Source of the DNA: Trypanosoma brucei | Lineage: Eukaryota | Direction: 5' to 3' | DNA: 64,000 nt | NCBI GenBank assembly: GCA_000002445.1 | Contig: CH464491.1 | Location: forward strand, 3,552,001 to 3,616,000 | Shown here: positions 2,391 through 64,000 of the stretch, piece after piece | Layout of the letters: the number at the start of each line of letters is the position of its first letter | Numbering within the stretch: position 1 is the first letter of the stretch | The notes under the pieces: model-generated | Database searches by the model: none | The model's input: only the letters and a program-made list of their open reading frames with translations | What the model was told of the DNA's origin: nothing | Translations under genes and position numbers: made by a program

Positions 2391-3719
2391 ATTCTTATAT
2401 ATGATTACCACGACCTCCACTGGCTTGCACACTACAACTTCACGAAGCAGAGAAGAAAAGTTTTTCTAGCTTGATACAGTGCAGCACAAGGCGAGCACAG
2501 ATGTTGTTCCTACCTGGGAGAACAACACAACATTACCAGAATGCAGAGGTAGTGTGGTCAACACCACCTACTTGGCAGCCACCCCGCCATTAACGTCGTA
2601 TTTTTCTCTCTTGTCACTCGCTGTTAGGTCCCACAATAGGGACCGAGTTATGGGAGAACCATTCATGCTATTACCCGATGTGAAGAAGCCATCATCGTTT
2701 TTTTTTTGTGTAGCGGGAAGTGCAGCACAAGCCACCCTTTCCCTCCCCCCTAGTTCCATCATTTCCCTCCTCGCCTTCCTAATACTTCTCCCATTGCTCG
2801 CTTGATCGCTCGTGAAGGACGCGCTGAGCAGGCAGCAACATGGAAGGTTGTGGCAATTTTTTTAAAAAAAAACAAGAAAACGAACAAAATAGTTAACCGG
2901 TGTAAGTGGGCACTCCGCTCATTCCGGTACCATCTTCTTTCAGTTACAAACCCCTGTGCAAGCGCACTCACATTCACCCTCACCATCTCTACTTTTTCCT
3001 TTTTTTTTCTTTTGCGGCATTTGCACCTTCCACATTTACGTATTCCACGCGTGCAGTAAAGAGAAGCATGTGCATCGCAAGTTTCTTATATTACACGATT
3101 CTCTTTCCTACTCCATTGCGCGGTCTTATTTCATTATCTCCGTCCTTCCCCACATCCTCCGCGGCCACGAGTGTAACTAGCTTTCACAGGTGTGTGAGCA
3201 TAAGATAAAGCTGCACTTATATCAAGAACTCGTTTTCCATACATCTGAACCACATTTGGAAGGATACACACGGAGAGACGAAAGCGCAACGTTGAACCAT
3301 CACACAAGCTTCAAAGCGGGGGCTCCATACCGCCGATACGCAAGACAAAATTGTTGACGGTGAAGTGAAATAACATAGGGAATAATAATCTTAACAGAGG
3401 AAGTGCTACTGCACATATACAGACGAACAAATAAGCAAGCAAAACGCAGCATAACACCCGTGGAAGAAAAGAGAGAATAGGAACAACCAGCAAAGTAATA
3501 ACTTAGTTTTACCGGCGGACAGAGTCTCTCTTTTCCCTATCCCTCGTTCTACACTTCCAAAAGGGGGATCACAGGTTAGCCCGCAGCTAGCTTTTCAGGT
3601 TGCCTAACTCACCTTTTACTTTTCGTTTTGTTTTCGTTTTCACCACCACTGTCAATTTTACTCCTTCACTTCCATTTCCACCAAACGCCTTATGCGTGTA
3701 TGGGCGCACGCCATCGTTT

Positions 3720-17102: not shown

Positions 17103-17766
17103 TAATAACTGGGTACGATACAAACCCTTCCTTCTGCTATGGGCGATTGTGAGGAAAAGGGGTATGGATAATATGTTCAGGTCGTTACGGGGTGGTTCGG
17201 AGTAAACCGGGGATGGAAAAAATTCGGGAAAGAGGGTGAGTGCGGTACGACTAGAAAAGGGTTGGGGATTTAGAAAGTAGCAGAATAAATAACAGTAGTG
17301 ATAGAAGAAAAAAAATAGAGCGGGAACGAGCCCCCATGTGTTTCTTTCAAAGTGCAATGTACCATCATTGCCTGTTGGCATGCACATAAACCAAGAAAGA
17401 AAGCCGCCTCAAGGTATCTGCACTGCTTCTCTTGTCACCATTGCCCTTCGGTGGCCTGGTATTAAGGCAGTGCAACAGACACAAATAAATAAACAAGAAT
17501 TCTCCGTAAGGCATGGTGGGGCTGCCATCGTCAACAGCCCCACGAATAATCACTCACCGTAATCGATAATTATTGAGCTGTACGGCAGGATCCGGTTGAA
17601 TAACCCACCAACAAAAAAATGTGAGTGCCATGTTGCCGGTGCTTCCGGGCTACGCACAACACAAATTTCCGGCGGCACAGCAACGACAAATTTTCACCTA
17701 TCTCTCGCCACCCATGTGGCACCGTAGAGTATGTCTCATTTTCACCGCCAGTCCTGGAATCATTGC

Positions 17767-17776
17767 CCCCCCCCCC
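17767..17776 (+). repeat. C10 homopolymer (G10 on the minus coding strand) upstream of COQ4
   Basis: cattg-C10-gagatatttc. Confidence 0.85.
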
Positions 17777-21621: not shown

Positions 21622-24001
21622 TTCCAGTGAGTCGTTTTTTTGTCCTGTTTGCGCTCTTGCGTCCTCGCCTGAGACAATAGCAGAGTTTTGTCCCGGTACA
21701 AGCAGCACTTTCCCTCTTTACTAGTTCCCAGGCAAAAAAAAAAAACAGAAGGAGAGGGATAGGGAGAAGGACACTTTGATTTTTTTTTTTTTTGCAGAGC
21801 TTGCAAGTCCTCACGTCTTTTTTCCCCCATTCCGTGTGCAAGCCCGATAAAGGACGAATGGGAATAAACCATTTAACCAGAGAAATACTGTATAATAATA
21901 TAGCCTCTTACACTCACTTATAAAACCATTTTTTTTTTTTTGTTACCACCCTATTCGTCTCCTTTCCAAATATCACAATTCATTTAACACAATAGTGAGA
22001 TGAATTACACACCGCCCCTTCCTCAGTTCTATCATCGCTATTCCCCTCCCTTATCTTTTGCCAACCATTGCCTTTGCGGGAATCCACATTAAAAGAATTG
22101 TCACCACACGTCATACCTAAGTACAAAACACCATCTGTTGATATCATTCCATTCCATTCCACTTCCTTTTCTTTCCCTCACCCTCAACCTTCCCACCGTT
22201 TCCATCGGTTAGCTACGGTCTGTCGTAACCGTTTCTTCCCTCCATGCTACGGTAGGGTACCGCAGAATATAACTCAAAGACACAAAACGATACCATGCCC
22301 AACAATTTCTCTCCACACTAAAAAACAACAGCAACAACAGCAGCACAAAGTGTGTGTTTTTCTAAAAAAAAAAAAAACGCCCCCTAAAAAAAAAAAATGG
22401 GCGAAACCGGTTGGGGACAGTTTCCCCTTTTGTTTCTTCTGCTTGTCACCCAATCCAGCTCACTGAATCAACGTGACTGCCCTTCACATTTTCATTACTT
22501 TTGTCAGTTAATGATAATCTCACTCGAAGGAGGTGAATGTTAGAGAAAACAACTAAACAACGACAAAAAGCAGCCTCCCCATATTTCCACTTTCCTCTCC
22601 ATCCTCACAAAAATATCAACATCATCCCTCCCCACACCATCGTTTTTGTTGTTATTATTATTACTTTCGTTATTCACTTATTAAACTTTACATCATGAAG
22701 ATCTCCGGGAGAGAAAGTGCATATACACACAAAGAGTCGAGTGCGAGGGGCCCTGCTGGAACCGGTCGGTCGCACATCCACTTTGCGGTGACCGTCAGCT
22801 ACGGTTGTAATAATTCCCATGTGGGAACTTCTTTCCTCCCTCTCCCCCCTTGGCCTATCTCTTTTCTCAGCATCCCGAGACACCCCGCCCCTGCTGCTAT
22901 TACCACGCGCCAACCCAAGTGAAAACAAAGAAGAAAAAAAACTGTGGTAAAAGGACATGACTATTACCTAAAGCAATAACCACAAAACAAAGTGACGCTA
23001 GCAACAAACAAGCACACAAAACTGCAATATAGAAAGGTAAGAAGGTTAGGGCATACCAAAGTTGCCAAAAAAATGTAAAAGGAATGCCAAAATCACCGAG
23101 GATGGGGCCAGACGCAGGAACAAAAGCAAGAATAAAGTAAGTCTGCCGCCGAGTATAAGCCCCGAACGCGCAAATCTTACCTTGTATTCTCGTCCCTGCC
23201 TCACAAACAAGCGTATGTGTACGCGTTCCCCTCCACACCCCTTTTGGCCAACTCATAGAAAACACTCCCGTTTAGCTACTTATTTACTTCCTCCTTTGGT
23301 TGTAGAGCCGGACGCGACGCGTACCCGGAGAACGATTCTTCAGGGAGAAGTAAAAGCAGAACATAATGCAAAAAAAAAAAAAATGAAAAAGATGTCGAAA
23401 ATGAGGCTGGTGACAAGCCCTTTGCAGGGCCGGCGCCTTTTCGCATCTCATATTGTGTTTGATAAATGATGTTTTTCTCTCCCTTTTCCCTGGGGAAGAA
23501 GGAAAAGAACCAGAATTGCAAAAAGAAAAAAGAAGACAACAACTATCTGAAATGAAAACAGAGAAAAAAATACACATTGCGCATACACTAACAATAAATA
23601 TCCCCACCCATGTATGGGAAAGAACGGCAACAACACCAAAAGAAAATAGAATATAAGCACAAAAAGGGAGAAAAAGAACCTGAATAAAAGAAGTGTTCAT
23701 ACTCGTACACATCTGCAGCTCCCCACACAAAATGTCACTGGCATATTGGAGGAAAGGATTCAATAAATAGGAATAACACGGTGGAGCTTTTATTATTATT
23801 ATTTTCTTTAGTTCCTGGAAATGCATTGATTTTCTGTAGATTTCCCCCTGCCTGTCTTTAACAAACTAGTGAACCTTCAATGGCCTACATTACCGCAAGT
23901 AGCGGTGGTGTTCCCACTATAAAGGTGGGGAATTGACCCAGAATCCACTTCCCTGCAGCTTTCCGGCATCACTTTTTTACATACAACCAATTAATTGAGC
24001 A

Positions 24002-39401: not shown

Positions 39402-39959
39402 TCATCTTTCTTTGTTGAGAAACTCTGCCCGCTGTTTTGCGAACAACTCTTTCTCGAGTTTCTTAATACGCTTATTGTTATAACTCTCTGCCGCTACTAC
39501 CAGTACTGGCACTGTAATTAGGCCTAAACAACATCCACAAGCGAAAACAAGACCAACCTTCGCTGGGATGCGGTTCTTTGGGCTTCTAAAAGCGTACACG
39601 GCAGCAGCAAAACTTCCCACAATAATCCCCGCGTCCAATCCCCGTTGCATTGGTTCACAGGAAAGAAAGAATCGCCACTGCTGTGAAAGCGCTCTTCTCT
39701 TTGCATCCCCGACGTTGAGACCCTCCTGTTCTATTATGTACTGTTTGAGATCCTTGACTTCGGAATCAGGATAAAGCTTACCCCTGTCTCGCTCGTCCTG
39801 AATGGCTGACATCATTTCCAGTGTCTCCTTTTTAGCAACCTTGTACCGCCCACTTCTTATGAGGTCGTCGATATTGGTAGACTCATGCTCGGTTGCTACA
39901 CGGCCTTCCGAACTGATTTCATTTGGCTCTTGTTTCTGGGTGCTCTGAAGGTGACCCAT
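39402..39959 (-). CDS. Small membrane protein (~185 aa) with two C-terminal hydrophobic helices; first gene of the minus-strand cluster
   Basis: Tool ORF extends to 40055. ATG at 39957-39959 gives MGHLQSTQKQEPNE. Helices GIIVGSFAAAVYAF and VGLVFACGCCLGLITVPVLVVAA. KR-rich coiled tail. Confidence 0.5.
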   Translation of the reverse strand: MGHLQSTQKQEPNEISSEGRVATEHESTNIDDLIRSGRYKVAKKETLEMMSAIQDERDRGKLYPDSEVKDLKQYIIEQEGLNVGDAKRRALSQQWRFFLSCEPMQRGLDAGIIVGSFAAAVYAFRSPKNRIPAKVGLVFACGCCLGLITVPVLVVAAESYNNKRIKKLEKELFAKQRAEFLNKER

Positions 39960-40445
39960 AGTACTACGTGACAACGGTAAAAGAAAAAAGAGGAAGATAT
40001 TGCCAATCACAAGGAAGCATGCATCGTGGTGGTAGCACATAAACAACAGTAACAAAAGATGCGCGAGATACCTCTACTCTTAAGAACATAGTATATTCAT
40101 TCGCTGCATGCAGATACTCATCGCCCGCCATTACCTCCCAAAGCATAGTGAACGCATGCACAACATGAGCGGTATTAAACGGCGACGAAAGGGGTTCAAA
40201 TAGCCGCTGATGCTTGTACCAAAACAAACAAGCGTACAATAATGAAATAATGGGGGGAAAACAACCGACGGCATTTTCAATCGCTAAAAACCGTCACGTT
40301 ACAACACGGACTCTTCGTGCACGGTTGTGACAGCTAATATATTATGACATCAAGAGTGGCAGCAAAGATAAGGTAACAGCATCCCAATAAAGTGAGGGGA
40401 AAACGGGGTGATGATGCACCCGCACCGAATATCAAACAATTTACA

Positions 40446-40455
40446 GGGGGGGGGG
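40446..40455 (+). repeat. G10 homopolymer in the SSR minus arm
   Basis: ttaca-G10-tgtaatccc. Confidence 0.9.
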
Positions 40456-42909
40456 TGTAATCCCATAGACTCGCATAATGGAAGACACGCTCTAACAAAT
40501 ATATTTCACGTACTGTTGTTACGATACACATGAGAAAAAAATTCGGGGTAGCAGTTCAGGGCAAGCAAAGAGTCGCACGGAATGAGAGAGAATGGGAAAG
40601 AGATATCCCTCGCTACGTATTGGCCGTGCCTTGGCAAACAGGGGCGATGTATCTTTGACAAAACCGGTGAATAGGGGTCCACATCTCATAATCGGCGAAA
40701 CAACGGCCGGGTGCTACAAAATATGAATCACCAGAACAACTATTTGGTCGACGCAACCACTTGTTTATCATACCTTTCGGAGCGGTACAGGAAAATGTTT
40801 CAAGCAGAAAACAGATCCCTTTTTACGCAGAGCAACATATTACTTGCCAAGTGACAAAACAACCACGGCACCACCACCTATTATAAACGATTGATGATTC
40901 ATTAAGCATGATAAACTAAAGTTTTTACTGGTGAAGAATCAATTAACCATTACGTTGCAGCATATGTCGCAAAGCACATAAATGCCCCCATTTACATAAA
41001 TTTCAGGAAAAAAAAACCAACCCTCTCTAGGAACAACCCCCGGTCGTCGAGCCGCCAGCAATTAAACTTATCGCAGGCGGCACCTTCATATTGGAAGGGA
41101 AGGAGACAAACTGATAACCGATAACAACATTACAGGTGTCTGACACAACCCACAAAAAGTAAGCAAACCGTGCGACACAACGATGACAGCACATCGAACA
41201 CAAAAAAGAAAAAAAATAAACACAATCAAAGAGAAGCAAAGGAAACACCGAAAAACATTTGGTGCTCACCAGAGGGGGTTGGTAGAAAAGTAAACAGCCC
41301 CCGAGGTAGCATTTCGCTATTGTCTGCTTAGTATTGAGATAATAACAGTCTTCTAGTAGTGGCTTGTAGGAATAATACGCGCGACGATTCTCTTTCAAAG
41401 TGTTGGCAAGCTAACTCGGTTCCAAAAGAGGACCGAAGGAGCGAATCAACAACGAGGGCAAATTACTTAGAGTATATCCATCTGTCCTGAATCCGACGGT
41501 AAGTCACACATATGCACTTTAAAAGGCTCCTCGAGTATCGGCAGGGGGCTCGGAACGCACTTGCTCTCAACGACCTAACCAATCAGAGACCACGAACTAA
41601 GAAAAAAAAAGGGTGCCACAATAATGTAAAAGAAGCAGATTTGCCAGACCGCTCATTGAGTCGAAAGATATTTGTACCGTTTGCCGTACAGATAGTTCAT
41701 CGGTATCCGACATACTCTTCCGGGATCGCAGCGCATGCATTGCCATCCATTGATAAATCGTAATCGATGCAATCGCCACTAACGGCCGCAATTAAGAGAA
41801 TCAGCTCTCCACTATCTAAACTCTTAAGAACATAACCAACACAGCGTAGACAGCTCCCTCACGGGGACACCGGACCCATATCGAGCATCAATTGACTCCC
41901 ACACACAACCCTATTCACTGTAGCCAACACAGGCATTCCCATATTGACGGACCGCTATGATCGAGTAACATTCTTAACGCCGAAACGGTGAGGCACAACC
42001 CACGAAAATATAAAACAACACCCCCTTAGGAATGAGCCAGCAGGCCTCCGGTGCGAGCGCACAAAAAACCCAACGGAACATCCCCCGAATAACCGGCCGA
42101 ACAGCGGCGTCAACCCGCGGCATCGGGGTCTCTCAACAAAACAAAGGACGCGCCAGCATTCTTCATTTGAGAACCGAGCCCTCCGATACCAAGAAATGGG
42201 AGGCGACCCATGGTCCACCGGGTGGGCACACCAGAGTCTGATCCTGCGATTGAAACCCCCGCCCCGCGTAAGGGATCTCCCCAAGAGGAAGCAAGCGATC
42301 CACAGCAAAGGACAGACTCCTCCAGCCCCACCCCCACACGAGGTGGAGTCGGTGTCCCCCTCCCTACTCCGAAGTAAGTGCAAGCACTCTTCACCGGGGG
42401 AAGAGGGCGGACAGCCGAATGTGGAGCCCTGCCACGGACTAGCCAACAGCACCGAAGGCTACATGACTAGTAGCGCATCTGCACGAGCGGCACCGCACCG
42501 GGTGTTAAAAACTGTAGACCGTATGGGTCGTGGGGGAAAGTGGCACCGCAGGGGCGTAGGGTCCCGTTTTTTCTTCTCGCATTGCGGTGTCAAGCCCTCC
42601 CCTCCATGTGCGCCGCGTTTCTGCAACTGTAGGACCCCCACTGGGCCCGCCGGCGCCACCGGTGCTCGCTATCGGTTGCTTGGTGTGTATGTGTCCTTTC
42701 CCAGTCTTCGCACTTTGGGGTGTTCACGTATGGTTCTGGCGGTGCCGGCTCCGCCGTGGCGGGAACGATCCGCTAGGCGGGCAACGGCGTTGTTGCAGTT
42801 TTGCTACTTGGGTGATGGCGGACCGTCTGTTTGTGTATGAGCGGAAGTTTTTACTCGCGCTAGCGCATTTGGCACACCGCCTTTGGGATGGTCAGAAGTT
42901 TTTGCACGC

Positions 42910-42924
42910 GGGGGGGGGGGGGGG
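42910..42924 (+). repeat. G15 homopolymer (C15 on the minus strand) in the SSR core
   Basis: cacgcg-G15-atgcg. Longest homopolymer G run in the window. Confidence 0.9.
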
Positions 42925-43087
42925 ATGCGTTCTGAATTGCACTTTTCCTGTGCATCCGTTGAGGTCGGCTATTTTCAGGGTTGGTTGGTCGTTTGCAACT
43001 TTTGCCATCCGTCGGGTAACAAATTGCCATGTATTTCAGGGAGGTGTGCGAGTCCGAGGATGGTGCGGTGTGTCATGTTGCTGTAGT

Positions 43088-43095
43088 CCCCCCCC
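43088..43095 (+). repeat. C8 homopolymer in the SSR plus arm
   Basis: gtagt-C8-tccc. Confidence 0.85.
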
Positions 43096-44111
43096 TCCCA
43101 AATGCGGAGGAGCTTGTAGCGTGGAATGAGTTTGCTCAATTTACGTGGTAGCCTTGTTTTTGTGTATCCATATGTAGGGGAGGAGCTGTCAGCAACCCTT
43201 ATGGCCGGAGAGCATACACAGTCAGTACACCGAGGTTGAATGCAGTTGGGGAGCTCTCCGGTTCGATTACAGCGTGGATGCAAGTTGTTGTTTTTGTTCC
43301 CGTGCCCCCATAGTCGTGAAGTTGTGTTGCTCAAGCGCGCTGCGACAGAGTAACTGATGAATCTTTTATTGTACTAAACCTATGTAACCGCCCCTCCTCC
43401 GCAATACACAAAAAAGAGCCACCTTGCAACTAGCTCCGAAAATCGGACTAGCTTTTTTCAGACGTATGCGTTGCCCCACGCTGATACACGGGTTCCGAAT
43501 GCGAGCTATGTCAAGCAACCTTTGTTTAAGTTTGTGGTTGCACCTTTGTAATGCGCCATCGTGGCTATGTGGTTATGCGACCACCTCGCCAGCTGTAGGC
43601 GTCTCCTCTCCCTCATGACCCAAATTTTTGGGATGGAGCGACGGGACGTTGAGTTTTTTTGTTTGCTTAGAAAACATTACTGTACAGCGCTCCACAGAAC
43701 TACGCAGTAGCATCTCCCTGTGGCTGAAGATATCAATTTAGCCGTTAGTGTAAGGTTGGAACCTCAGGTGTTTTGTTATCACGTTTCGGTTCCTTGCGCC
43801 GAGAATTTCCGCGAGTAGAGGTGCCGGTTGTGAATATTTTGTTGCGTAGTTCTATCTTACTGCCTTATCCACATGCTTTAACAGCAGCACCCTAGTGCAA
43901 AGCGAAGTAGGATTTGTGCGCCCCTGAGACAGTGCAGCACGATATGACATTCATTTGTGAAGGTGATGTGGAGGAGAAACCAACAGGTTCCAGTATCGCA
44001 ACCTCTCATATCGGGTGCCAGCAGTTTTGAAAGAACCACCACTGCTGCTGCCATCGGATGTTGTAGACTTCCTATTTGTAAGTGAAGGTGCGGTTTGTTC
44101 GTTTCCCCTAC

Positions 44112-44127
44112 TTTTTTTTTTTTTTAG
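44112..44127 (+). promoter_or_regulatory. Polypyrimidine tract (T14) plus AG dinucleotide: predicted trans-splice acceptor signal for the ODC mRNA
   Basis: ccccTAC-T14-AG sits ~155 nt upstream of the first ODC ATG. This is the canonical kinetoplastid SL-addition signal architecture. Confidence 0.5.
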
Positions 44128-44282
44128 AGACCGCGGGGAGGGCTTTCCTTGCTTCCCAGAAATATTATGTTTAAACACGCATGTGCGTCGGTAGCAAGCC
44201 TGGTAAAATTTGTCTGTACCATTTCCAATGAAGCGGTAGGGAAAGAGGCGGTACTGGGGAGGGATTAAGCAGTAAGGCAAAT

Positions 44283-45620
44283 ATGACCACCAAATCAACC
44301 CCCTCTTCTCTCTCTGTGAATTGTCTTGTAGCACAAACGGAGAAATCTATGGACATTGTCGTGAACGATGACTTGAGTTGTCGCTTTCTTGAAGGGTTTA
44401 ATACGAGGGATGCCCTCTGTAAAAAGATCAGTATGAATACGTGTGACGAAGGTGATCCGTTTTTTGTTGCCGATCTCGGGGACATTGTAAGGAAGCACGA
44501 AACATGGAAAAAATGCCTTCCCCGCGTCACGCCGTTTTACGCGGTCAAATGCAACGATGACTGGCGCGTACTTGGAACGCTGGCGGCTCTCGGCACGGGA
44601 TTTGATTGTGCTAGCAACACTGAGATACAACGTGTGAGAGGCATTGGTGTGCCACCGGAAAAAATAATATATGCGAACCCTTGTAAACAAAATTCACACA
44701 TACGGTACGCGCGTGATAGCGGCGTTGATGTCATGACATTTGATTGCGTGGATGAACTGGAAAAGGTCGCTAAAACGCATCCAAAGGCAAAGATGGTATT
44801 AAGAATTTCTACGGATGATTCGTTGGCTCGATGCCGTCTCAGTGTGAAGTTTGGTGCAAAGGTGGAAGACTGTAGGTTTATCTTGGAGCAGGCAAAGAAA
44901 CTGAATATCGACGTCACTGGTGTGAGTTTTCACGTGGGAAGCGGATCTACAGATGCCTCTACCTTCGCTCAAGCCATATCTGACTCCCGTTTCGTTTTCG
45001 ACATGGGTACTGAGCTTGGGTTCAATATGCACATTCTTGATATCGGTGGTGGGTTTCCAGGGACGAGGGATGCACCACTTAAATTTGAAGAGATTGCTGG
45101 TGTCATCAACAATGCGCTGGAAAAACATTTTCCACCTGACCTCAAGCTTACCATTGTTGCCGAGCCGGGAAGGTACTACGTTGCTTCAGCTTTCACACTT
45201 GCCGTAAATGTTATTGCCAAGAAGGTGACACCAGGGGTTCAGACCGACGTCGGTGCCCATGCTGAATCAAACGCACAGAGTTTTATGTATTATGTGAATG
45301 ATGGCGTGTATGGTTCATTTAATTGCATCCTGTATGACCACGCAGTCGTCAGGCCTTTGCCCCAGAGGGAGCCAATCCCCAATGAAAAGCTCTATCCCTC
45401 AAGTGTATGGGGTCCCACATGTGATGGTCTTGATCAGATAGTTGAACGATACTATCTTCCCGAGATGCAAGTGGGGGAATGGCTGCTCTTTGAGGATATG
45501 GGTGCCTACACGGTCGTAGGAACTTCTTCCTTTAATGGATTCCAGAGTCCGACTATTTACTATGTAGTCTCCGGGCTACCAGACCATGTTGTCCGGGAGT
45601 TGAAAAGTCAAAAATCATAA
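44283..45620 (+). CDS. ODC: Ornithine decarboxylase, 445 aa (PLP-dependent; no C-terminal PEST region)
   Basis: ATG at 44283. Sequence [26 protein letters not shown]...FYAVKCNDD...(PLP Lys)...GFDCAS...HVGSGS...GGGFPG...WGPTCDGLD matches T. brucei ODC. A second in-frame ATG lies at 44349 (MDIVV). Confidence 0.95.
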
Positions 45621-46764
45621 ATGGAAGCGAAGGTGCATAATACGGGCCCAGCTCGTTGGGTCTCTGAGCAATGAAAGAAGGGGCTTTACCACCAGGTGTT
45701 GCTTCCTTTGGTAATATATTTGGTCTGTTCTTGACCCTGCTGTTAGCTTTTTGCCCTTTGTGAGCTTAACGACTCAACTATCAGCGACTACATCTCACAA
45801 GTCATATGTCCATGACTCCCCCAAAATAGGCTCCGTGAGGGCCCTGTGACGGGGGTACATTGAAGCCTCTGGAGTTGTTGAGAGACAGAAGACAGTCGTG
45901 TGTGTTTGTGTGAGGGAGTGATTAGTGGAAAATTCAATGAACAGAGGAAAATAGGGAGCAAGTTTTTGGTATTGATAGGGATGCTTGTAATGGTAACTTT
46001 TTACTTAATTTTTTGAGTTGTACGTGACTGAATGCAGGCAACAGTTTACTGGTAGTTGCGTTTTTCCTTTCAGTTGTGCAGTTGGACATTCAAATGTCGA
46101 GCACTTTTCTGTTGTTTGACAACCCATCTTCATTTTCCCTGTGGTGTAGCATATTGCAACTGGCCGCATAGACAAGGTGGGAAAGGTATAGGTCTCAACA
46201 TCTTTAGTTTAGGCTTCTGCTTATTTGTTATAATTTTGATTAATGTGGTGTGGGGAGTGCCCCGAAAAAAAAAAAAACGAAAAACATTGTATTGTACGTT
46301 CTGTAAAGGCACGACAACGTAAGTGGGCCTCTGGGAGCTGGAAACGGGGGTTGCGGCCAAGCTGTGGCTTCACGTATTGGTCGGTGGAAGCTGCTTTCCG
46401 TAGTGTAGCTGACTTCATTCACGAAGGAAGGGGATCATAATAATGTATGTTGACCATCCTCCCTTCGGTGGTGAGCTGTTTGGCTATCCCGTAGCTATCG
46501 AAACGAGTAGGGAACAATTATTAGAGTCGTGTCAAATCGTTTTCCGTAGTGCCACAAACGAGAGAAGTGGGTGCGGAAGTGTTCGGAATAGGTGAGCAGA
46601 CAACGACCTTCCTCCGCTCGACCGCTTGATATGTTGTCAAACGTGGTCGATCGGTGGGAAAAGAGATGGTTCACCTTTCTTGGGAGGAGATGCGTTTCAC
46701 GATTTTTCTTAGCATTGTCCTGTCGCCTAATGATACGTCCTAACGTAGTGGAGTGTGTGTATAG

Positions 46765-46775
46765 GGGGGGGGGGG
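46765..46775 (+). repeat. G11 homopolymer in the ODC/adenylate-cyclase intergenic region
   Basis: gtgtgtata-G11-cggctgccgcg. Confidence 0.9.
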
Positions 46776-48638
46776 CGGCTGCCGCGCTGTGTGAACTGGC
46801 CGCAATGGTATCTTCCATTAGGTTAGATCTACGGAGTGAGTGACCCGAAGAGCCTGACATGGGCATGAAGCGCTCGCAAACTAGGTGTCGATGATTGTTT
46901 TCCCCTGCCGAGTCCGGTTGTCCGATTATACAAGAATTTTGACGTTATGAGGGCAAAGACGGAACCCATTTATTGGGCGGAACGCTCTTGTAGGATGATT
47001 CCACCTTGCTTGCGAAGGGATGATCTTCTTCGCATAGTGGGTACAGTGGCCGTTGCTTTTTATTTGAGCTGACATTTCGATATTACCGTTTCCAGGGCGC
47101 ACCACCTTGATTCACGATTGCGTAAAGGTGAGTGCGCAGACTCTTTTGTCCATCCTTTTTAGCGGTGCGAAGTCTAGTAATAATTTAAATACCCCTTCGA
47201 TACGTGTGTATGATCTTCCCCTTTCACCAACTGAGTGTTTAGGAACTAAGCACTGGGTATTGGAGTAAAGAAGCGCGTGTACGGGTGCCACTGTGCTGTA
47301 CTGTATCTGCGCAAGCTGGTTATTTTCCACGGGGAGGAGCCTTTGACGCGTGGGCTGTGCCAGCCAACGGCCACCTTCCTGGATTATTTCGTTGGGGCAT
47401 CATCATTGGAAATTTATTTGGATCACATCAACTCTGACAATCCTACCCATGCTCCGGGAGCCTATGCGAGCGGTCTTTCTTACGTTACCTCTGCACATAT
47501 TTTGTCATCCGTTAGGTGTCTAGCTTCATATAACATTTGAGGGTACATTCCTCTGTCTCAGATGTCATTGTCACTCATCCCTTTGATCAGCATGGGGAGG
47601 TGTTGGAGCTCGGATGGCGATTGAAGAGGGAATAGCGCGCGTTCTCCATGCGCAGATGGAGGTAATGGGCCAAGAAAATTTGAGTGTGCGTAATTTCTTG
47701 TGACCTTCTAACCAAGGGACGGTGTGCTCCCTGGAGCCACTGGGGCTTACTTTCTGCACTTCATGCAGGCTTATACCACACGTTCTGGAACGGGGGTTGC
47801 CTCGCCTTCATGAGGTGGTAGCTATCCTTTCGCTCGGTAGTCATGGGGCTGATTCCTATTTCTTCACGCGCTAACTGCCGAAATTAGAACTGTTATGACA
47901 AACTGGAGTGGCCGCGACAAGATGCTTTCTACAGGATTCAATGGAGTATCTTGACTTCGTGCGAGCTACGTCCACTTACTTCCAAACACACCGAAACAGC
48001 AGAGTCTGAACCAGCAATTCGGTGTTGCGCGCGTGTGTGGGAGGAAACGGCGTGTGGATTCGTGTTGCCACTTTTATGAGATGGGGATTGTATGTAACGT
48101 AACAACACTAAATATGCGATGCCGAAAACTGGGGATGAGCGACTCAGTCACGAAGACCACAGAAGTATTCAGTTGGGAGCGGGGGCTCATTTCTCAACCA
48201 AACTATATTCTCCAGGTCGCGACTCAGTAGGTGACAGTATAAGGGGCCTTATTCGTCTTTTGGTATTCCTACTGGACGTGATGCTTGCTTTTGTGTAGCC
48301 TGTGGTGTCATCCCTCCCATGTGACAGCAGGAATGAGATGCCGCAAATCGTGTTGGACTCCCGTCTTTTTGTAATTAACTCGCTGCGGCCCCCACACGGG
48401 ACTCCGCATCGCAGCATGAACCGATGCCTGAGCTTCGGTCCTCTTCAGTCGATCGGCGCACTGCCACAGGAAAATTTTGCTTTATCATTCCTAACACCGC
48501 TTTGTCTCTCAGTTCGTAATCTGCTCTCCGTTTCAAACCTGTTTTCTGAAGGACATACACGTAGGCAACAACGAAAACGATTACAAAAGTACCTCAGTGA
48601 AAGAGTTTCCGAGTGGTGCTATTTATACTTGCGGGGAG

Positions 48639-51600
48639 ATGACCACCACGAAGGCTTCGTGTCTTATATCCAGTGACAGTGCCCTTCGCCGAAATTCCAT
48701 TGTCGCCACGGCACCATTGCTGCTGCTACTGGCGCTAACGTTGCCTGTCGGTAATGGGGAGGTCACGCAAGTGAACGTCCTATCTCTCATGTACACCACT
48801 GAATTTCCCGTGGAGGACGCCGTTTTATTTGATAAAGGACTTAACGTTTCATTAATGGCGCGCCGTTTGGAGCTCAAGGGGCAAGTGAAAGTTGAGTTTA
48901 TTCGTCCTGCAGCACCTAACTCTCCAATAGATGTCGCAATCGAGCAGGGTGCTCAGCAGAGTGTAGGCAAACTATTGCTTGTTCTTGGTCCGCTGGGCGA
49001 CGATAACATCCAAATATTTAAAGGTGCGATGGAAGAGCATGAGTTAGTCGCCTTTACCCCTATTGCCACTTCAAGTGAGGGCTACGGCTGGGATCCTCAT
49101 CTCTACTACTTGACTGTTGGGCCGGATGCCGAGCTGATGGCTCTCGTTCGCTACGCTGTTGGTGTGTTGGGTCTTCAGCGGGTAGGCGTGATGTACGTGA
49201 AAGATACGTCGTTCAGCAGGAAATCATTTGAGTTCGTGGAGAAGCTGATGATGAGGATGGGTCACAACATAAGTTGCGTGTTCGCCCCAGAAAGTGGCTT
49301 CTCTTCTGCAGGTAATAAGGTCTCTTTGGACTCGGAATGGGAGCAATTCGCCGCTGCACTTCCACAGGCGATACTGTTGCTTGGTCCGCGCGGCCGCGAT
49401 AGTAGATGGTTTGTCATGCGGGTAGCAGAGGACAATCGGACATCGCGCTCACATTTGCTTGCGCAGTCAGGGTTACAGAGCTTTTTGCTGAAGACATGGT
49501 GCGAAGCATTGGAGGCGACGGGCGCTGAGTTTAGGACTGGACAGGTGATCTTCTCAGGGACGAATCCTCTGGCATGCGACACAGAGTACAAGGCGGTACA
49601 ACGGTTTATCGATGAAACAAAAAGGTATCTAGGAAACGAGGAGGAGGGGAGTGAGGACGCAGGGGCGGGAGGCCTCTCCAATGATACTGGGGGAGAGATG
49701 ATGATGCTTGGTTGGATGACTGGTGAGGTCATTTCTGCGGCACTGGGCAACAGTAGGGTTGTGAGCAACCGCACAGCTTTTATGGAATCCTTATATTATC
49801 AACGTCGTTACGTAGTAGATGACCTCGTGATCGGTGATTACGGCAACGAATGTGGGGAGGAGGCAATTCGGCAGGGTGCTGTCTGCCGCTGCAACCAGGG
49901 TGGAAGTATGGTTTACATGAAGGAAATGGTTAGTAAGACCCTGCTAAGGCCAGTGACTGCGGGTTATGTGACTTTAGGTATGTCGCGGTGCTCGAGGGAA
50001 TCTTTGCAACTTAATGCGCCTTTAAATGCTCTTCTTCTGCTTATGCAGGACGATGACGTTGCGCTAAGAGCAAACGTGGATTGGGACGTTGGCGCATCTG
50101 CTAGTGTGGGGAACGGGCACCTCACCGTGCATGACAGACTGTTTTTACACTCTTTCCTTGCGACATCAGACGCCGCCGCCAGTATTCTGCAGCAGCTGCT
50201 CAGTGTCAGGATTGTGTCGGCTGTGTTTGGTGTCGTCAGCGACGACATGCTCGAAATAGAGGGTATGACTTTCTTCGATCCGATAACAACTACTCCCCGT
50301 CTAACTAAGCCGAGGAAAAATGTTATTTACCTCTCTCCCACGATGGAACAGCAACTTTATGTGCTTGCAGAGTACCTTTACAGCAATCCGCCCCCGAGTG
50401 TCAAAGCCATCATACGGAGCAAGGAGGCTTCCGAAATTTCAAAGCTGCTGAGAAAGACGCTTCTAACGTTTGATGCCCCTTTGAGCCCCGCAGACATCCT
50501 TGATGATGATGATGAATTGGGCGACTACCTTCCGACGGAGGGAGATGTAATGGTCATCGGCCTCACCAAGTCTGATGTGGGGACGATCGCGGAGCACCTC
50601 GAGACTTTTGAGGAGAGTCGGGTGTTTTTGATCTTCTCTGAATTAGCGTTGCTGTTTGAGGAGTTGAGAGCGGCATTCAGGAACAAAGCGTCCGCCCATC
50701 GCCTCGTGTTTGCTACCAACTTACCCCACTGGGCGGAAATCGAAATGCCAACGGACCGAGTAGATAATCTTAATTCTGTCGTCCCAGATCGGTCACTGTG
50801 GTCTCCCATGGCGTTGCTCGGTTTCGTCACCGGACGGTTGATGGAGTCAATTTTGGAGCGCATGGAGAACGTGAACCCTGGACTACTGGCGGATTTATTC
50901 TTCAAGGAGAGCCTCATTACTGTCGACGGAATGTGGTACGGACCGTACACTGATGATTGTGATATCGGCAAACCAATTGAAGGAAACCACTGCATCCATA
51001 ATTATGGAGCCACGCATATATCCGTGTGGTCGATGGCCCGTGTACTGAGATCGGACGTTCCACTGCTACAAAATCCCACAACACCATCGATGGAATACAT
51101 CGACCCCGACGCTATTGTATTGACTGGTGCGGCCATCGCTGGCATTGGCATTGCTGTGTTCGCCTCCTTGTTGCTCCTCGCCGCGCTTGGGGCCTTATTA
51201 TACTTTACGATGAACAGAACCCGTGACAACGCCAGTGCGCCGAAGGAGCCGATGGAGCCCGTCACGATCATCTTTACTGACATTGAAAGCAGCACTGCTA
51301 TATGGGCTGCACACCCTGAGCTGATGCCCGATGCCGTTGCCGCTCACCACCGCGTAATCCGCCGCTTGATTGAAAAATACGACTGCTACGAGGTGAAAAC
51401 CGTTGGCGACTCGTTCATGATTGCTTGCAAAGGTGCGTACCCGGCCGCGCGGCTCGTGTGGGAGCTCCAAGTATCGTTCTTGAATCATGATTGGGGAACA
51501 GGCGTGTTTGATGAGATTTATCGTGACGCTGAAAGGGAGAGGCGGTCAGAGGACCGTGAATACAACCCACCAACTGCATATCTGGACTCCGAAGTGTACA

Positions 51601-61968: not shown

Positions 61969-62790
61969 AGTCTGGTTCCATAATAGTGTTGCTTCGCTTT
62001 CTTTTTATTCGAACCTATCAATTAGAAAATTCATATTCGCCACTTTTAGTTGCTCGGTGCACCTGAAGTTTAAATACATGCTCTCGTATGATTCTTCGCT
62101 TGTATTATATTATATGTTTACTTCTCGCTTCTTTTGCCTTTCTTTTTTCTTTTTTAAAAAAGCCTTTTTCAGGGAGCTGTAATGCACTTATGCCGGGGCG
62201 GTTACGTTTGCTCCTGCGGGCGGCTGATGTGCCCCGGATGTTCTAGGTTGTGTCTTGCCTGCAACCAGCTGGTATGTGCCAACTGCATCCCACTCACGAT
62301 GACCCACTGCTTGCGGTGTTCCCTGGCTTACATACGTAATACTCGTTGCCAGATGTGATTATTAACCCTTCATTGGGCTTGCCGGTTCGTGCTCGCAGAG
62401 AACTTACATTTGTATCACCTTCGTTCATGGTGAGACATCTCTTTCACTTACGCCCCCCTGCTTTTCATCCCCCTTAGCGCCTTCTCCCTTCTCCCATTTA
62501 CTTCGGCCTCTGGTTGCTCTACCCTCATTATTGTCTCCAAACTCGTGCTTAACCACTGTTCACCGGATAGTACACTGTATTGGTGCGCTGTAATGCTTCG
62601 TTGCCACTCTAACTCTGGAGAACGAGGTGCGACTGTGGTGGGAGTCCATTTTAGGTGATTAGGGAAGATGTTATGGAGAAATATCTCTCGATGCCTGCTT
62701 CCCCAAGCGAAGTACACTTCCTTCACAGTCCAGTCAACATACACCCTTTCCCTCGGGAAACGCTCTGCACCCTGGGGGGAGGAGAAGAGA

Positions 62791-63096
62791 ATGCCGACAC
62801 TGCTCATTGATGCACCGAAACCAGAGGCGCTGTCATGTGGAACAGGACAACCCGCCCAGCGTGGACGTCGAAAGCCGTTAGTATGGAAGCGAAGACACCC
62901 ATGGTTTGACAGGCAGTGGTCCTTGGATCTGAAGCGTGTGAAGAAGGGACCCTCAACTCCCCAATTCCCAGAAGGTGTGCCCTTCACGCAAATAAGGTCG
63001 TTTCAATCCTTTGCGGGGAGATCATGGAAAATTAATGCCGGCCGCCGGAGGAAGATCCGGCTTTCACTTAAGCGGGGACGTCGGAAGCTGTTGTGA
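62791..63096 (+). CDS. Small very basic protein (~101 aa from internal ATG; tool ORF starts 62668); C-terminus weakly bL34-like
   Basis: Plus-strand ORF in the plus cluster. C-terminus SFAGRSWKINAGRRRKIRLSLKRGRRKLL resembles ribosomal bL34 (..[28 protein letters not shown]). An overlapping minus ORF 62448..62987 is antisense to the cluster and is disfavoured. Confidence 0.3.
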   Translation: MPTLLIDAPKPEALSCGTGQPAQRGRRKPLVWKRRHPWFDRQWSLDLKRVKKGPSTPQFPEGVPFTQIRSFQSFAGRSWKINAGRRRKIRLSLKRGRRKLL

Positions 63097-64000
63097 GTGT
63101 CTCCCTCCGCTCCATGGTCGCGCGTATTTTATTCAGGGTATGTGGGTCATGCGGTAGAGGTGCCTACCGTAGTGAAAAGACGTTCGCTGTCGTTCGTTGA
63201 TACGCTTTTTCTCTGTTGTCACTTCGTGTTTTCTCAATCGCGATCGCGTTTCATGATTGGTAACATTTCTACATACCTGCCATTTTTGTTCTCAAGGGGT
63301 GAAAGCAAGGAATGCACACGCGAGCATTCTCCATCATTCATATTTCGCCTCATTGTCAATAGGGGATTACCATGTCTGATGCGCCATCCGCGGTGATGCC
63401 GTTGCGTTTAATGTGACAAAGCGGGTTGACAATTCTCTCATTCTCTGTTTCCCACTTTCGTTTTTCCACTTCGATTTTGATCATTGCTGCGCAGGGGATC
63501 TGACAATATATACCGTTGCAGTTTTGGAGATGATGAGCAGGTGCGTGAGCTGGTCCCCTTTTTGACGTTTTCCACCGTTACCGACTTCCCCTTCGTATAT
63601 CTGTGTGACACCTAGTGTGGAAGTATTTCCGATATCGTTGTAGATATTTTTTAAAGACAGTCTTGTGTACACCTACCAATTGTCTCTCTTCCCGTCCACA
63701 TGAGCTGCGCCCGTGTTCTTTTAGGCGCCGGCTCGGGGTAGTAGTACCTGTTGTGTTCTATTGTGATGCATTACCGTAATTCATCTTGCCCTTTGAGTGT
63801 TTACCAACTGCTTGCTTTCGGGCGGTGAAGTCTCTCAACGGCGTAAAAAAAAAGAAAGGAACAAGATTTTCTGTCTGTGGTAAATATTGTTTAGTTTCTG
63901 GAATTTATGGGATGTTTGGCAGCAGAATGGTTTCTTTTTCTCACTGCAGCTTATTTGAATATGCCTCATACGACCTGAGCGGTCATACACCATGTGGAAC

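Follow-up and report, generated by a model that had tools for sequence, protein, structure and literature searches.

Where does transcription begin between two gene clusters that point away from each other, and what in the DNA marks the place? We addressed this question for a 64,000-nt stretch of DNA (the window, numbered from its first letter), in which an earlier note had placed a bidirectional RNA polymerase II start region at a reversal of strand composition. The window corresponds to Tb927_11_01_v4 3,552,001-3,616,000 of T. brucei TREU927 chr11, with a coordinate offset of 3,552,000. Divergent strand-switch regions of T. brucei are reportedly RNA polymerase II transcription start regions, a finding said to go back to Siegel in 2009. 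We consider the region to be a canonical divergent strand-switch region of T. brucei chr11, from which two polymerase II polycistronic units start in opposite directions, with a probability of about 0.85.

Flanking gene clusters and the published start-region record

Exact protein matches established that the flanking genes are real T. brucei TREU927 chr11 genes, in agreement with the locus that the earlier note had proposed. Every real gene to the left of 40 kb is encoded on the minus strand, among them those for a BRCT-like protein and a membrane protein (212/185 aa), and all genes right of 44.3 kb, including ornithine decarboxylase (ODC), are on the plus strand. The arrangement is thus divergent and not convergent, as had been claimed. 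The ORF list of the window gave the same picture for ORFs of at least 180 aa (minus left of 40,055, plus right of 44,283), the exceptions being two overlapping ORFs in a G+C-rich core, one of which is Tb11.01.5290.

The interval between the first genes of the two clusters is about 4.4 kb long and contains no expressed protein-coding or structural RNA gene. Genes for tRNAs, snRNAs or snoRNAs, which are common markers of switch regions, were not detected in it using ARAGORN and Rfam (the latter even at E<=1), it contained no Pfam domain, and no novel transcript is listed for chr11 3.592-3.596 Mb. A blastn search found no further copy of the 4.4-kb interval within the window.

The first trans-splice acceptors of both clusters could be placed (Table 1). 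For the leftward cluster, the spliced leader is added at 39,963, beside an AG at 39,965-39,964 and a minus-strand polypyrimidine tract at 39,966-40,000, and the leftward primary transcript must therefore begin to the right of this site. As the mapped site falls within the annotated ORF of Tb11.01.5280, the true start of this gene is most likely the ATG at 39,959 and not that at 40,040. For the rightward cluster, the AG lies at 44,330-44,331. Since the splice site at 44,332 is inside the annotated 445-aa ORF of ODC, we place the ODC start at the ATG at 44,349, giving a protein of 423 aa; ODC entries of this length occur among the protein matches.

The 5'-triphosphate RNA-seq of Kolev 2010 (PMC2936537) found 5'-triphosphate RNA enriched at every divergent unit. 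Table S14 of that study, which names the first and last genes of each unit, lists both Tb11.01.5280->4720 (minus) and Tb11.01.5300->5310 (plus, 5300 being ODC) as "Divergent". This supports the claim of a polymerase II start region, none of the outcomes that the earlier note had named as refuting it was seen, and from this gene-level listing we conclude that primary transcripts start in the interval in both directions. Both this type of start region and the ODC locus itself are already published.

Table 1. Features of the strand-switch locus (positions within the window)
Feature	Position	Strand	Basis
Tb11.01.5280 (EAN80315, membrane protein), first CDS of leftward cluster	39402..39959	-	annotated start 40,040
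First trans-splice acceptor, leftward cluster	39963..40000	-	Kolev Table S1 SAS 3,591,963; sequence
Left arm, A/C-rich on plus strand and so G/T-rich on sense strand; presumed leftward start region	39964..42499	-	skew, 10-mers
G10 run, non-coding strand relative to leftward cluster; breaks mirror pattern	40446..40455	+	sequence
Strongest G/T-rich sense tract; candidate leftward promoter element	41106..41260	-	75-nt windows
G+C-rich core straddling the flip	42100..42900		58-64% G+C in 200-nt windows; window mean 49%
Tb11.01.5290 (EAN80316, "T. brucei spp.-specific protein")	42196..42840	+	annotated ORF, judged spurious
Switch point of strand asymmetry	42499..42500		global minimum of cumulative GT skew (42,499, whole 64 kb); largest skew step
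Right arm, G/T-rich sense strand; presumed rightward start region	42500..44331	+	skew, 10-mers
G/T-rich sense tract cluster; candidate rightward promoter elements	42674..42989	+	75-nt windows 71-73% G+T, at least 99th percentile
G15 homopolymer, coding strand of rightward cluster	42910..42924	+	sequence
Polypyrimidine tract, AG and first trans-splice acceptor, rightward cluster	44300..44332	+	Kolev Table S1 SAS 3,596,332; sequence
Ornithine decarboxylase (Tb11.01.5300 / Tb927.11.13730), gene 1 of rightward cluster	44349..45620	+	protein matches

Strand asymmetry and G/T-rich tracts at the switch

The GT skew, taken as (G+T)-(A+C) on the plus strand, was followed in 1-kb bins, in 200-nt windows and as a cumulative curve over the 64 kb. 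We observed negative values in nearly all 1-kb bins between 1 and 42 kb, and positive values between 43 and 64 kb. In 200-nt windows the skew passed from -0.21 (42,301-42,500) through +0.01 (42,401-42,600) to +0.16 (42,501-42,700). The sign change from an A/C-rich left to a G/T-rich right that had been described for the plus strand was thus recovered, and the cumulative minimum fell inside the 42.45-42.65 kb that had been given for a switch at ~42.5 kb. The G/T-rich string quoted with it, ggtgctcgctatcggttgcttggtgtgtatgtgtcc, was located at 42,661-42,696. We also calculated a step statistic, the skew of the right 800 nt minus that of the left 800 nt. It peaked at 0.475 at the switch point, the second largest step in the window was 0.24, and 0.475 was matched by 0 of 500 shuffles of 100-nt blocks.

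The GT skew of the left arm (39,960-42,499) was -0.182 (binomial z -9.2), with a TA skew of -0.282 and a GC skew of -0.071, and that of the right arm (42,500-44,282) was +0.146 (z +6.2). The inner 800 nt of the two arms were near-exact compositional mirrors, with GT skews of -0.240 and +0.235 (the latter for 42,500-43,299), G+C contents of 0.557 and 0.559, GC skews of -0.184 and +0.177 and TA skews of -0.311 and +0.309. On the sense strand, the inner 800 nt of each arm thus had a GT skew of +0.24; the outer parts had +0.16 and +0.07. The asymmetry of the outer left arm was mainly one of A over T rather than of C over G, and at 40.2-40.7 kb, within this outer part, the plus strand had more G than C.

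Skew of the same sign was also carried by the whole gene clusters (-0.043 on the left, +0.093 on the right). Because the skew keeps its sign through both whole clusters, the sign flip alone marks the direction of transcription and not a promoter. The sense skew of the inner arms was about twice that of the ordinary intergenic regions of the window (0.08-0.15), and coding sequence was far lower (0.03). The part of the skew that is specific to the switch is only this roughly two-fold amplification in the inner arms. We also evaluated the G+C-rich core as a CpG-island-like element and rejected this, as the observed/expected ratio of CpG was 0.7-1.0 with a window mean of 0.94.

When we examined 75-nt windows, the highest G+T content was 0.81 in the left arm and 0.73 in the right arm, the 99th percentile of the window being 0.707. 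The core of the strongest tract (41,142-41,260) had 75-nt windows of 80-81% G+T and was one of just two tracts in the 64 kb to reach 80%; the lowest 200-nt GT skew (-0.38) was at 41,101-41,300. The coding-strand-biased 10-mers of Wedel 2017 (PMC5579346) occurred 13 times on the plus strand, the G15 run included, and once on the minus strand of the right arm, and 7 times on the minus strand and once on the plus strand of the left arm. The top strand-biased 10-mer at start-region 5' ends in that study, GGGGGGGGGG, has 132 coding-strand and 17 non-coding-strand occurrences (Dataset EV1). The G15 run is 411 nt from the flip, is the sole G-quadruplex-type motif in 39-46 kb, and has a G14 counterpart in T. 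b. gambiense. On its own coding strand the leftward arm has T-rich tracts and lacks poly-G, with no G run of at least 8.

In Wedel 2017 (PMC5579346), G/T-rich tracts on the coding strand, above all poly-G, were found at the 5' ends of start regions, which they mark, and were shown to drive initiation in a directional manner. Transcription and H2A.Z deposition that depended on orientation were obtained both with fragments of start regions and with synthetic GT-rich sequences; this activity was seen with two start regions other than the chr11 ODC locus and with synthetic sequences of 210 and 416 nt. By analogy with this reporter and ChIP work, the following explanation may be proposed. RNA polymerase II would start a leftward unit from Tb11.01.5280 and a rightward unit from ODC. 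The G/T-rich tracts that each half carries on its own sense strand, with G15 in addition in the rightward half, may act as dispersed, orientation-dependent promoter sequence, and would favour sense initiation and H2A.Z-containing, acetylated nucleosomes over several kilobases. Initiation would be dispersed across each arm with no single fixed site, and the primary transcripts would be processed at the first trans-splice sites at 39,963 (minus) and 44,332 (plus). The skew flip at 42,499, within the ~0.8-kb G+C-rich core, would then be the border of two opposed start regions. We infer by the same analogy that the G/T tracts of the ODC locus themselves drive initiation. The exact start sites, the centring of initiation at 42.45-42.65 kb that the earlier note had proposed, and the chromatin marks typical of such regions (H2A.Z, H2B.V, H4K10ac, H3K4me3 and BDF3 enriched over 5-10 kb) are likewise predicted for this locus.

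The promoters had been described in the earlier note as short and GT-rich, and this part did not stand, as it merged two types: the literature has long, dispersed GT-rich promoters (Wedel 2017) and, separately, a 75-bp element. The latter comes from Cordon-Obras 2022 (Cell Rep 38:110221), which reportedly describes 75-bp sequence-specific polymerase II core promoters in switch regions. Published motifs of this 75-bp type were not found genome-wide under CRD1 or RPB1 peaks in the SPARC study, which suggests that promoters are heterogeneous.

Alternative origins of the asymmetry and evolution of the locus

A mirror of this kind could also be a passive mutational footprint. Unidirectional transcription exposes the non-template strand, and sense substitutions would run towards G and T, with an effect that peaks together with polymerase density, R-loops and open DNA; the tracts would have no promoter role, and chromatin alone would set initiation. 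Such a process fits the skew, which keeps its sign for 40 kb leftward and 20 kb rightward of the switch, and also the R-loops that Briggs 2018 reports for the borders of divergent switch regions. The rate of change fits as well. When T. b. brucei is compared with T. b. gambiense, the switch interval has 12-22 SNPs per kb and coding sequence 1.6-1.8, so that the interval evolves about ten times faster between the subspecies, and conservation across species is nil: blastn with the 4.4 kb gave no alignable sequence in the upstream regions of T. vivax, T. cruzi and T. theileri, only low-complexity A/T matches. With fast divergence and no alignable sequence, no discrete conserved element is visible. 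However, synthetic GT-rich sequences built from the Wedel 10-mers suffice for orientation-dependent transcription and H2A.Z deposition (PMC5579346), and the skew doubles in amplitude over the ~800 nt next to the flip, which lie upstream of the first splice sites. We therefore regard a purely passive footprint as unlikely, about one chance in five. The two views are also compatible, since a mutational origin does not preclude function.

Less probable still is that the flip is, or is in addition, a replication origin at which ORC1/CDC6 binds, with a leading/lagging mutation bias or the topology of A-tracts and T-tracts making the mirror. The plus strand does change from an excess of A on the left (TA skew -0.31) to an excess of T on the right (+0.31), and Briggs 2018 reports in its introduction that ORC1/CDC6 binds all switch regions, of which ~45 fire as origins. 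Yet the switch regions that act as origins are a minority, and a nascent-strand study saw no enrichment of origins at switch regions. The sign of the skew, moreover, tracks gene orientation across the window and does not decay from a point.

We also considered Tb11.01.5290 as a real T. brucei-specific gene, which would move the beginning of the rightward cluster to the left of 42.2 kb and make coding sequence of the G+C-rich core. This ORF is annotated in three Trypanozoon genomes and has an ATG start and 214 codons. However, it is among the ORFs without detectable transcript (Kolev Table S2, PMC2936537) and has no Pfam domain. Its SNP density between the brucei and gambiense subspecies, 21.7 per kb, is the maximum of the locus (real CDS, 1.6-1.8), the SNPs are spread over codon positions 1/2/3 as 5/5/4, and in T. 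b. gambiense the stop codon is lost, extending the ORF to 300 aa. The skew flip also falls inside it, and the same G+C-rich DNA has overlapping ORFs of comparable length on both strands. A genuine gene is therefore very improbable, and we rejected Tb11.01.5290 as an untranscribed, unconstrained and domain-free chance ORF in G+C-rich DNA. Finally, an inverted duplication (palindrome) centred at 42.5 kb, of which the mirror composition would be a by-product and which the nearly identical, sign-reversed composition of the inner 800-nt arms might suggest, was rejected as next to impossible, since an inverted-repeat search gave just four pairs, all short (14-30 nt) and imperfect (70-93% complementary), that were at chance level and not symmetric about 42.5 kb.

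The orthologous divergent switch of T. cruzi had a skew step of 0.565 precisely at the strand switch, and a DGF-1 fragment makes up the G+C-rich block beside its flip. In T. vivax the skew step is weak, and a G+C-rich stretch of 3 kb contains ORFs that are doubtful. A 341-aa transporter-like gene separates the 188-aa gene from the switch in T. cruzi, T. rangeli, T. grayi and T. theileri. When six-frame fragments of 40.0-43.0 kb and of the T. vivax region were searched by tblastn and with an HMM built from four species, no relic of this gene was detected (best E ~1).

Rab4 is the first gene of a cluster that begins at a divergent switch in T. vivax and T. theileri, and in both species the 5280 and Rab4 clusters are on separate contigs. 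The leftward cluster likewise starts at a divergent switch in T. cruzi and T. theileri, where it faces lineage-specific genes (DGF-1/RHS, GP63). The nearest relatives of ODC outside Trypanozoon are vertebrate enzymes; among the matches listed, the ODC entries that are clearly vertebrate have 63-66% identity. The second gene of the rightward unit is GRESAG4 adenylate cyclase, of a lineage-expanded family. One speculative history, to which we give a low probability, makes the rightward half a young promoter arm for captured genes: an ancestral divergent start region that lay between the 5280 and Rab4 clusters would have received ODC and GRESAG4 by insertion, and the arm at 42.5-44.3 kb would have become GT-rich afterwards. 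If true, open and constitutively initiating regions would be places where newly acquired genes preferentially land and are expressed. ODC is itself an essential drug-target gene of apparently vertebrate origin, and stands first in a two-gene unit at a start region.

Comparison with known systems

For the canonical start-region reading, the outcome is mostly confirmatory and matters little beyond that. Strand composition, from the raw sequence alone, placed a polycistronic start region within ~100 nt. One doubtful gene model, Tb11.01.5290, has been removed, and two candidate fragments have been defined, the minus-strand tract and the plus-strand tract cluster with its G15 (Table 1).

Strand compositional asymmetry of trypanosomatid gene clusters is said to have been described by Nilsson and Andersson in 2005. 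It is also the subject of McDonagh 2000, as cited in Wedel 2017 (PMC5579346). The locus is a textbook instance of it, having the same excess of G over C and of T over A on the sense strand, flipping at the switch, throughout the 64 kb; here the amplitude is about doubled in the 800 nt on each side of the flip.

Compared with the T. brucei divergent switch regions of Kolev 2010 (PMC2936537), we found no difference in kind, as the clusters run outward from a few kb of gene-free DNA and both have a mapped first trans-splice site. The rightward unit, however, is unusually short, consisting of ODC and one adenylate cyclase gene. After these two genes there is an "Internal" start upstream of Rab4.

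With regard to the GT-rich dispersed promoters of Wedel 2017 (PMC5579346), the 10-mers and the G15 are in the expected orientation, but the left arm fits only in part, since its coding strand is without poly-G and its G10 is on the opposite strand. The promoters of Cordon-Obras 2022 share the setting, two opposed unidirectional promoters in a divergent switch region; they are reportedly a short defined element and not a GT-rich tract. Mammalian CpG-island bidirectional or dispersed promoters, a comparison drawn by Kolev 2010 (PMC2936537), likewise combine a G+C-rich core with broad initiation and divergent transcription, and have a strand skew downstream of the start, whereas the units here are polycistronic, with no CpG enrichment and no gene-specific regulation.

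Mirror-image strand asymmetry at the switch

We observed that the GT skew of the plus strand, (G+T)-(A+C), was negative nearly throughout 1-42 kb and positive over 43-64 kb when taken in 1-kb bins. In 200-nt windows it ranged from -0.2 to -0.34 across 41.7-42.5 kb, crossed +0.01 at 42,401-42,600, and then reached +0.16 to +0.35 over 42.5-43.1 kb, while the cumulative skew had its global minimum for the full 64 kb at 42,499. All three measures confirmed the sign change that the earlier note had placed near 42.5 kb. We further used a step statistic, the skew of the 800 nt on the right minus that of the 800 nt on the left. Its maximum (0.475) was at 42,499/42,500, was twice the next largest in the window (0.24), and was reached by none of 500 block shuffles (100-nt blocks). 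The mirror-image flip is real and highly non-random.

The inner 800-nt arms were nearly exact compositional mirrors of each other (GT -0.240/+0.235; GC skew -0.184/+0.177; TA skew -0.311/+0.309; G+C 0.557/0.559). The mirror is one of composition and not a palindrome, and an inverted duplication was rejected (just four short imperfect inverted repeats, none symmetric about the flip). The sign of the skew spanned the entire clusters (-0.043 over 1-39,959; +0.093 over 44,283-64,000), and sense-strand GT skew elsewhere in the window was 0.08-0.15 in ordinary intergenic DNA versus 0.03 in coding sequence. What is peculiar to the switch region is the abrupt sign change, with an approximately two-fold amplification beside the flip. 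The outer left arm was A-rich, not C-rich, and at 40.2-40.7 kb the plus strand locally had more G than C. The second-largest step lay at 23,780, within a long intergenic stretch of the left cluster (21,622-24,001) whose asymmetry was unusually strong, with a GC skew of -0.33 at 22-23 kb and a TA skew of -0.22 at 23-24 kb.

Flanking genes and contents of the interval

The flanking genes were divergent, as had been read earlier, with EAN80314 and EAN80315 on the minus strand to the left, and ODC, EAN80318 and EAN80319 on the plus strand to the right. The chromosome 11 record that carries the matched genes is that of Trypanosoma brucei brucei TREU927 (5.26 Mb). Positions given by Kolev 2010 (PMC2936537) place the window at Tb927_11_01_v4 3,552,001-3,616,000, which bears out the chromosome 11 assignment of the earlier note.

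Features of the switch region, its flanking genes and related stretches (window positions unless a handle is given)
Feature	Position	Strand	Remark
EAN80314	36,933-39,197	-	conserved protein, named BRCT-domain-containing in other species; exact-sequence look-up, TREU927
EAN80315 (Tb11.01.5280)	39,402-40,040	-	212-aa membrane protein; exact-sequence look-up
EAN80316 (Tb11.01.5290)	42,196-42,840	+	hypothetical protein; exact-sequence look-up
EAN80317, ornithine decarboxylase (ODC)	44,283-45,620	+	heads rightward cluster; exact-sequence look-up
EAN80318, GRESAG4 receptor-type adenylate cyclase	48,639-52,283	+	
EAN80319, Rab4	57,983-58,579	+	
G10 run	40,446-40,455	+	left arm
G/T tract	41,142-41,260		left arm
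G/T tract	22,271-22,350		
G/T-rich windows	42,674-42,989		right arm
G15 run	42,910-42,924		right arm
G12 run	46,764-46,775	+	ODC-GRESAG4 intergenic region
C11 run (G11 on minus strand)	17,766-17,776		left cluster
341/342-aa gene	L004 8053-9078; L005 7934-8962; L007 354-1379; L008 65-1090		heads cluster in four Trypanosoma species (L handles, stretches from relatives)

The major spliced-leader addition sites of Tb11.01.5280 and ODC correspond to positions 39,963 and 44,332, respectively (Kolev 2010, Table S1, PMC2936537). Inspection of the sequence revealed an AG and a polypyrimidine tract at each site, as expected. Since both sites fall within the annotated ORFs, the true start codons should be at 39,959 (giving 185 aa) and 44,349 (giving an ODC of 423 aa, as in the 423-aa ODC entries). 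The annotated ORFs of both first genes are accordingly too long, the surplus being 39,960-40,040 (-) and 44,283-44,348 (+). The primary transcripts of both clusters must start within 39,964-44,331, and the published lists contained no further processed transcripts in this interval.

No tRNA was found in the interval, nor any Rfam family even at E<=1, and none of the ORFs within it contained a Pfam domain. Its CpG content was not raised, and no copies of it were present elsewhere in the window. A G+C-rich core of about 0.8 kb (58-64% G+C) spans the flip and contains Tb11.01.5290, the only annotated gene of the interval. It crosses the flip itself and is among the ORFs without a detectable transcript (Kolev 2010, Table S2, PMC2936537). 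This ORF was confined to T. brucei subspecies and varied in length (214 aa vs 300 aa), its stop codon being mutated in T. b. gambiense to give the 300-aa form. In an alignment with T. b. gambiense it had 21.7 SNPs/kb, the maximum of the locus (ODC, 1.6/kb; Tb11.01.5280, 1.8/kb), spread over codon positions 1/2/3 as 5/5/4 with no position bias. On all these grounds we judged it to be spurious, and a real gene at the centre was rejected. The ORF, annotated as a 'T. brucei spp.-specific protein', resembles a chance ORF in G+C-rich DNA.

Apart from its G15 and G10 runs, the switch region differed from that of T. b. gambiense at 12-22 sites/kb. The two homopolymers also differed, with the G15 run becoming G14, and the G10 run being shorter and interrupted by A. 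No alignable similarity was found between the interval and the matching regions of T. vivax, T. cruzi and T. theileri.

G/T tracts and proposed directional initiation

Start-region fragments and synthetic GT-rich sequences lead to orientation-dependent transcription and H2A.Z deposition, and GGGGGGGGGG is the top strand-biased 10-mer of such regions, with 132 coding vs 17 non-coding occurrences (Wedel 2017, PMC5579346). We scanned the window with the 157 Wedel ten-mers. The right arm carried 13 on the plus strand vs 1 on the minus strand, and the left arm 7 on the minus strand vs 1 on the plus strand. Sense-strand G+T in 75-nt windows peaked at 81% in the left-arm tract and was 71-73% in the right-arm windows. 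Throughout the 64 kb, a level of 80% or more was attained only by this left-arm tract and by one other, at 22,271-22,350 in the long intergenic stretch of the left cluster. The G15 run, 411 nt from the flip, was the sole G-quadruplex-type motif in 39-46 kb. The fit of the left arm was imperfect, as its own coding strand had no G run and the G10 run was on the opposite strand. The G12 and C11 runs were both coding-strand G runs at places where no start site is listed.

Both units are in the published record as Tb11.01.5280->4720 (-, Divergent) and Tb11.01.5300->5310 (+, Divergent), followed by Tb11.01.5320->6250 (+, Internal) (Kolev 2010, Table S14, PMC2936537). The proposal of a divergent pol II start region was correct in substance. 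Its wording, 'short GT-rich sequence-specific unidirectional promoters', conflated two reports. The GT-rich promoter sequence of Wedel 2017 (PMC5579346) is long, and the 75-bp element belongs to a separate report (Cordon-Obras 2022). The SPARC study did not find the Cordon-Obras motifs under pol II/CRD1 peaks.

The best-supported account, to which we give a probability of roughly 85%, is that of two opposed, dispersed pol II start regions meeting at 42,499. The sense-strand G/T tracts would favour directional initiation and also open, H2A.Z-rich chromatin, and the flip would be the border between the two oppositely directed start regions. At the present locus, what the tracts do, where exactly transcription starts and which chromatin marks are present are inferred. 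A skew of purely passive mutational origin would fit the fast evolution of the interval and the R-loops reported at switch boundaries (Briggs 2018). However, synthetic GT-rich sequences are sufficient (Wedel 2017, PMC5579346), and a passive origin would not preclude function. The switch may, with low probability, have an added role as a replication origin. ORC1/CDC6 are said to bind all switch regions (Briggs 2018), and the A-tract/T-tract topology of origins resembles the pattern seen here, but origins mapped from nascent strands show no enrichment in such regions. For regions of this kind, the preferred account of two opposed start regions is already established, and both the class and the present locus have been described before.

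The rightward unit and the orthologous switches

Among the best 120 hits, the closest relatives of ODC outside Trypanozoon were almost all vertebrate ODCs (63-66% identity to the named enzymes over 91-95% of the query), the non-vertebrate entries among the top scores being one mite and two mayfly sequences of lower identity. No other kinetoplastid ODC was among these 120. Horizontal acquisition of ODC from a vertebrate is a published idea, and the hits agree with it.

The right arm drives just ODC and the GRESAG4 gene; next, ahead of Rab4, lies an 'Internal' start region. This 5.7-kb stretch between GRESAG4 and Rab4 (52,284-57,982, +), lying between Tb11.01.5310 and 5320 (Kolev 2010, PMC2936537), had no long database-matched ORF. 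Its GT skew stayed positive without a flip, and 13 plus-strand Wedel 10-mers were present at 52-55 kb. Three additional gene accessions occupy it in T. b. gambiense. Rab4 is the leading gene of its cluster at a divergent switch in both T. vivax (stretch L009, 2263-9129) and T. theileri (L010, 7899-8808), unlike in T. brucei, where ODC and GRESAG4 come before it. In T. theileri, the contig of the BRCT-side cluster and that of the Rab4-side cluster each continue into GP63 genes and stop 20-26 kb past the switch. Acquired genes may have been inserted into an ancestral start region, which would make the right arm a young promoter. We consider this unlikely, and it remains speculative because T. 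vivax and T. theileri have the two conserved clusters on separate contigs.

For comparison, we took the orthologues of the BRCT-like gene with 10 kb of flank. An extra conserved gene for a multi-pass membrane protein of 341/342 aa (transporter-like, with weak TPT/EamA matches; 56% identity between T. cruzi and T. theileri) was present between the 188-aa gene and the switch in T. cruzi, T. rangeli, T. grayi and T. theileri. It was absent from T. brucei and T. vivax, with no relic detected in either. Upstream of the orthologous cluster in T. vivax (L001) we observed a 3-kb island (3001-6000) of 58-64% G+C amid DNA of 31-46% G+C, with two called ORFs whose arginine-rich, domain-free products look spurious. 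The T. vivax cumulative GT-skew minimum (4,017) fell within this island, and the step was weak.

In T. cruzi, the same cluster begins at a divergent switch opposite DGF-1 or RHS genes. The G+C-rich block adjoining the flip there is a DGF-1 fragment, so that a G+C-rich core need not be a conserved property of the switch. The T. cruzi switch is like that of T. brucei in being divergent with a GT-skew step, which in T. cruzi amounts to 0.565 and lies precisely between the oppositely oriented genes.
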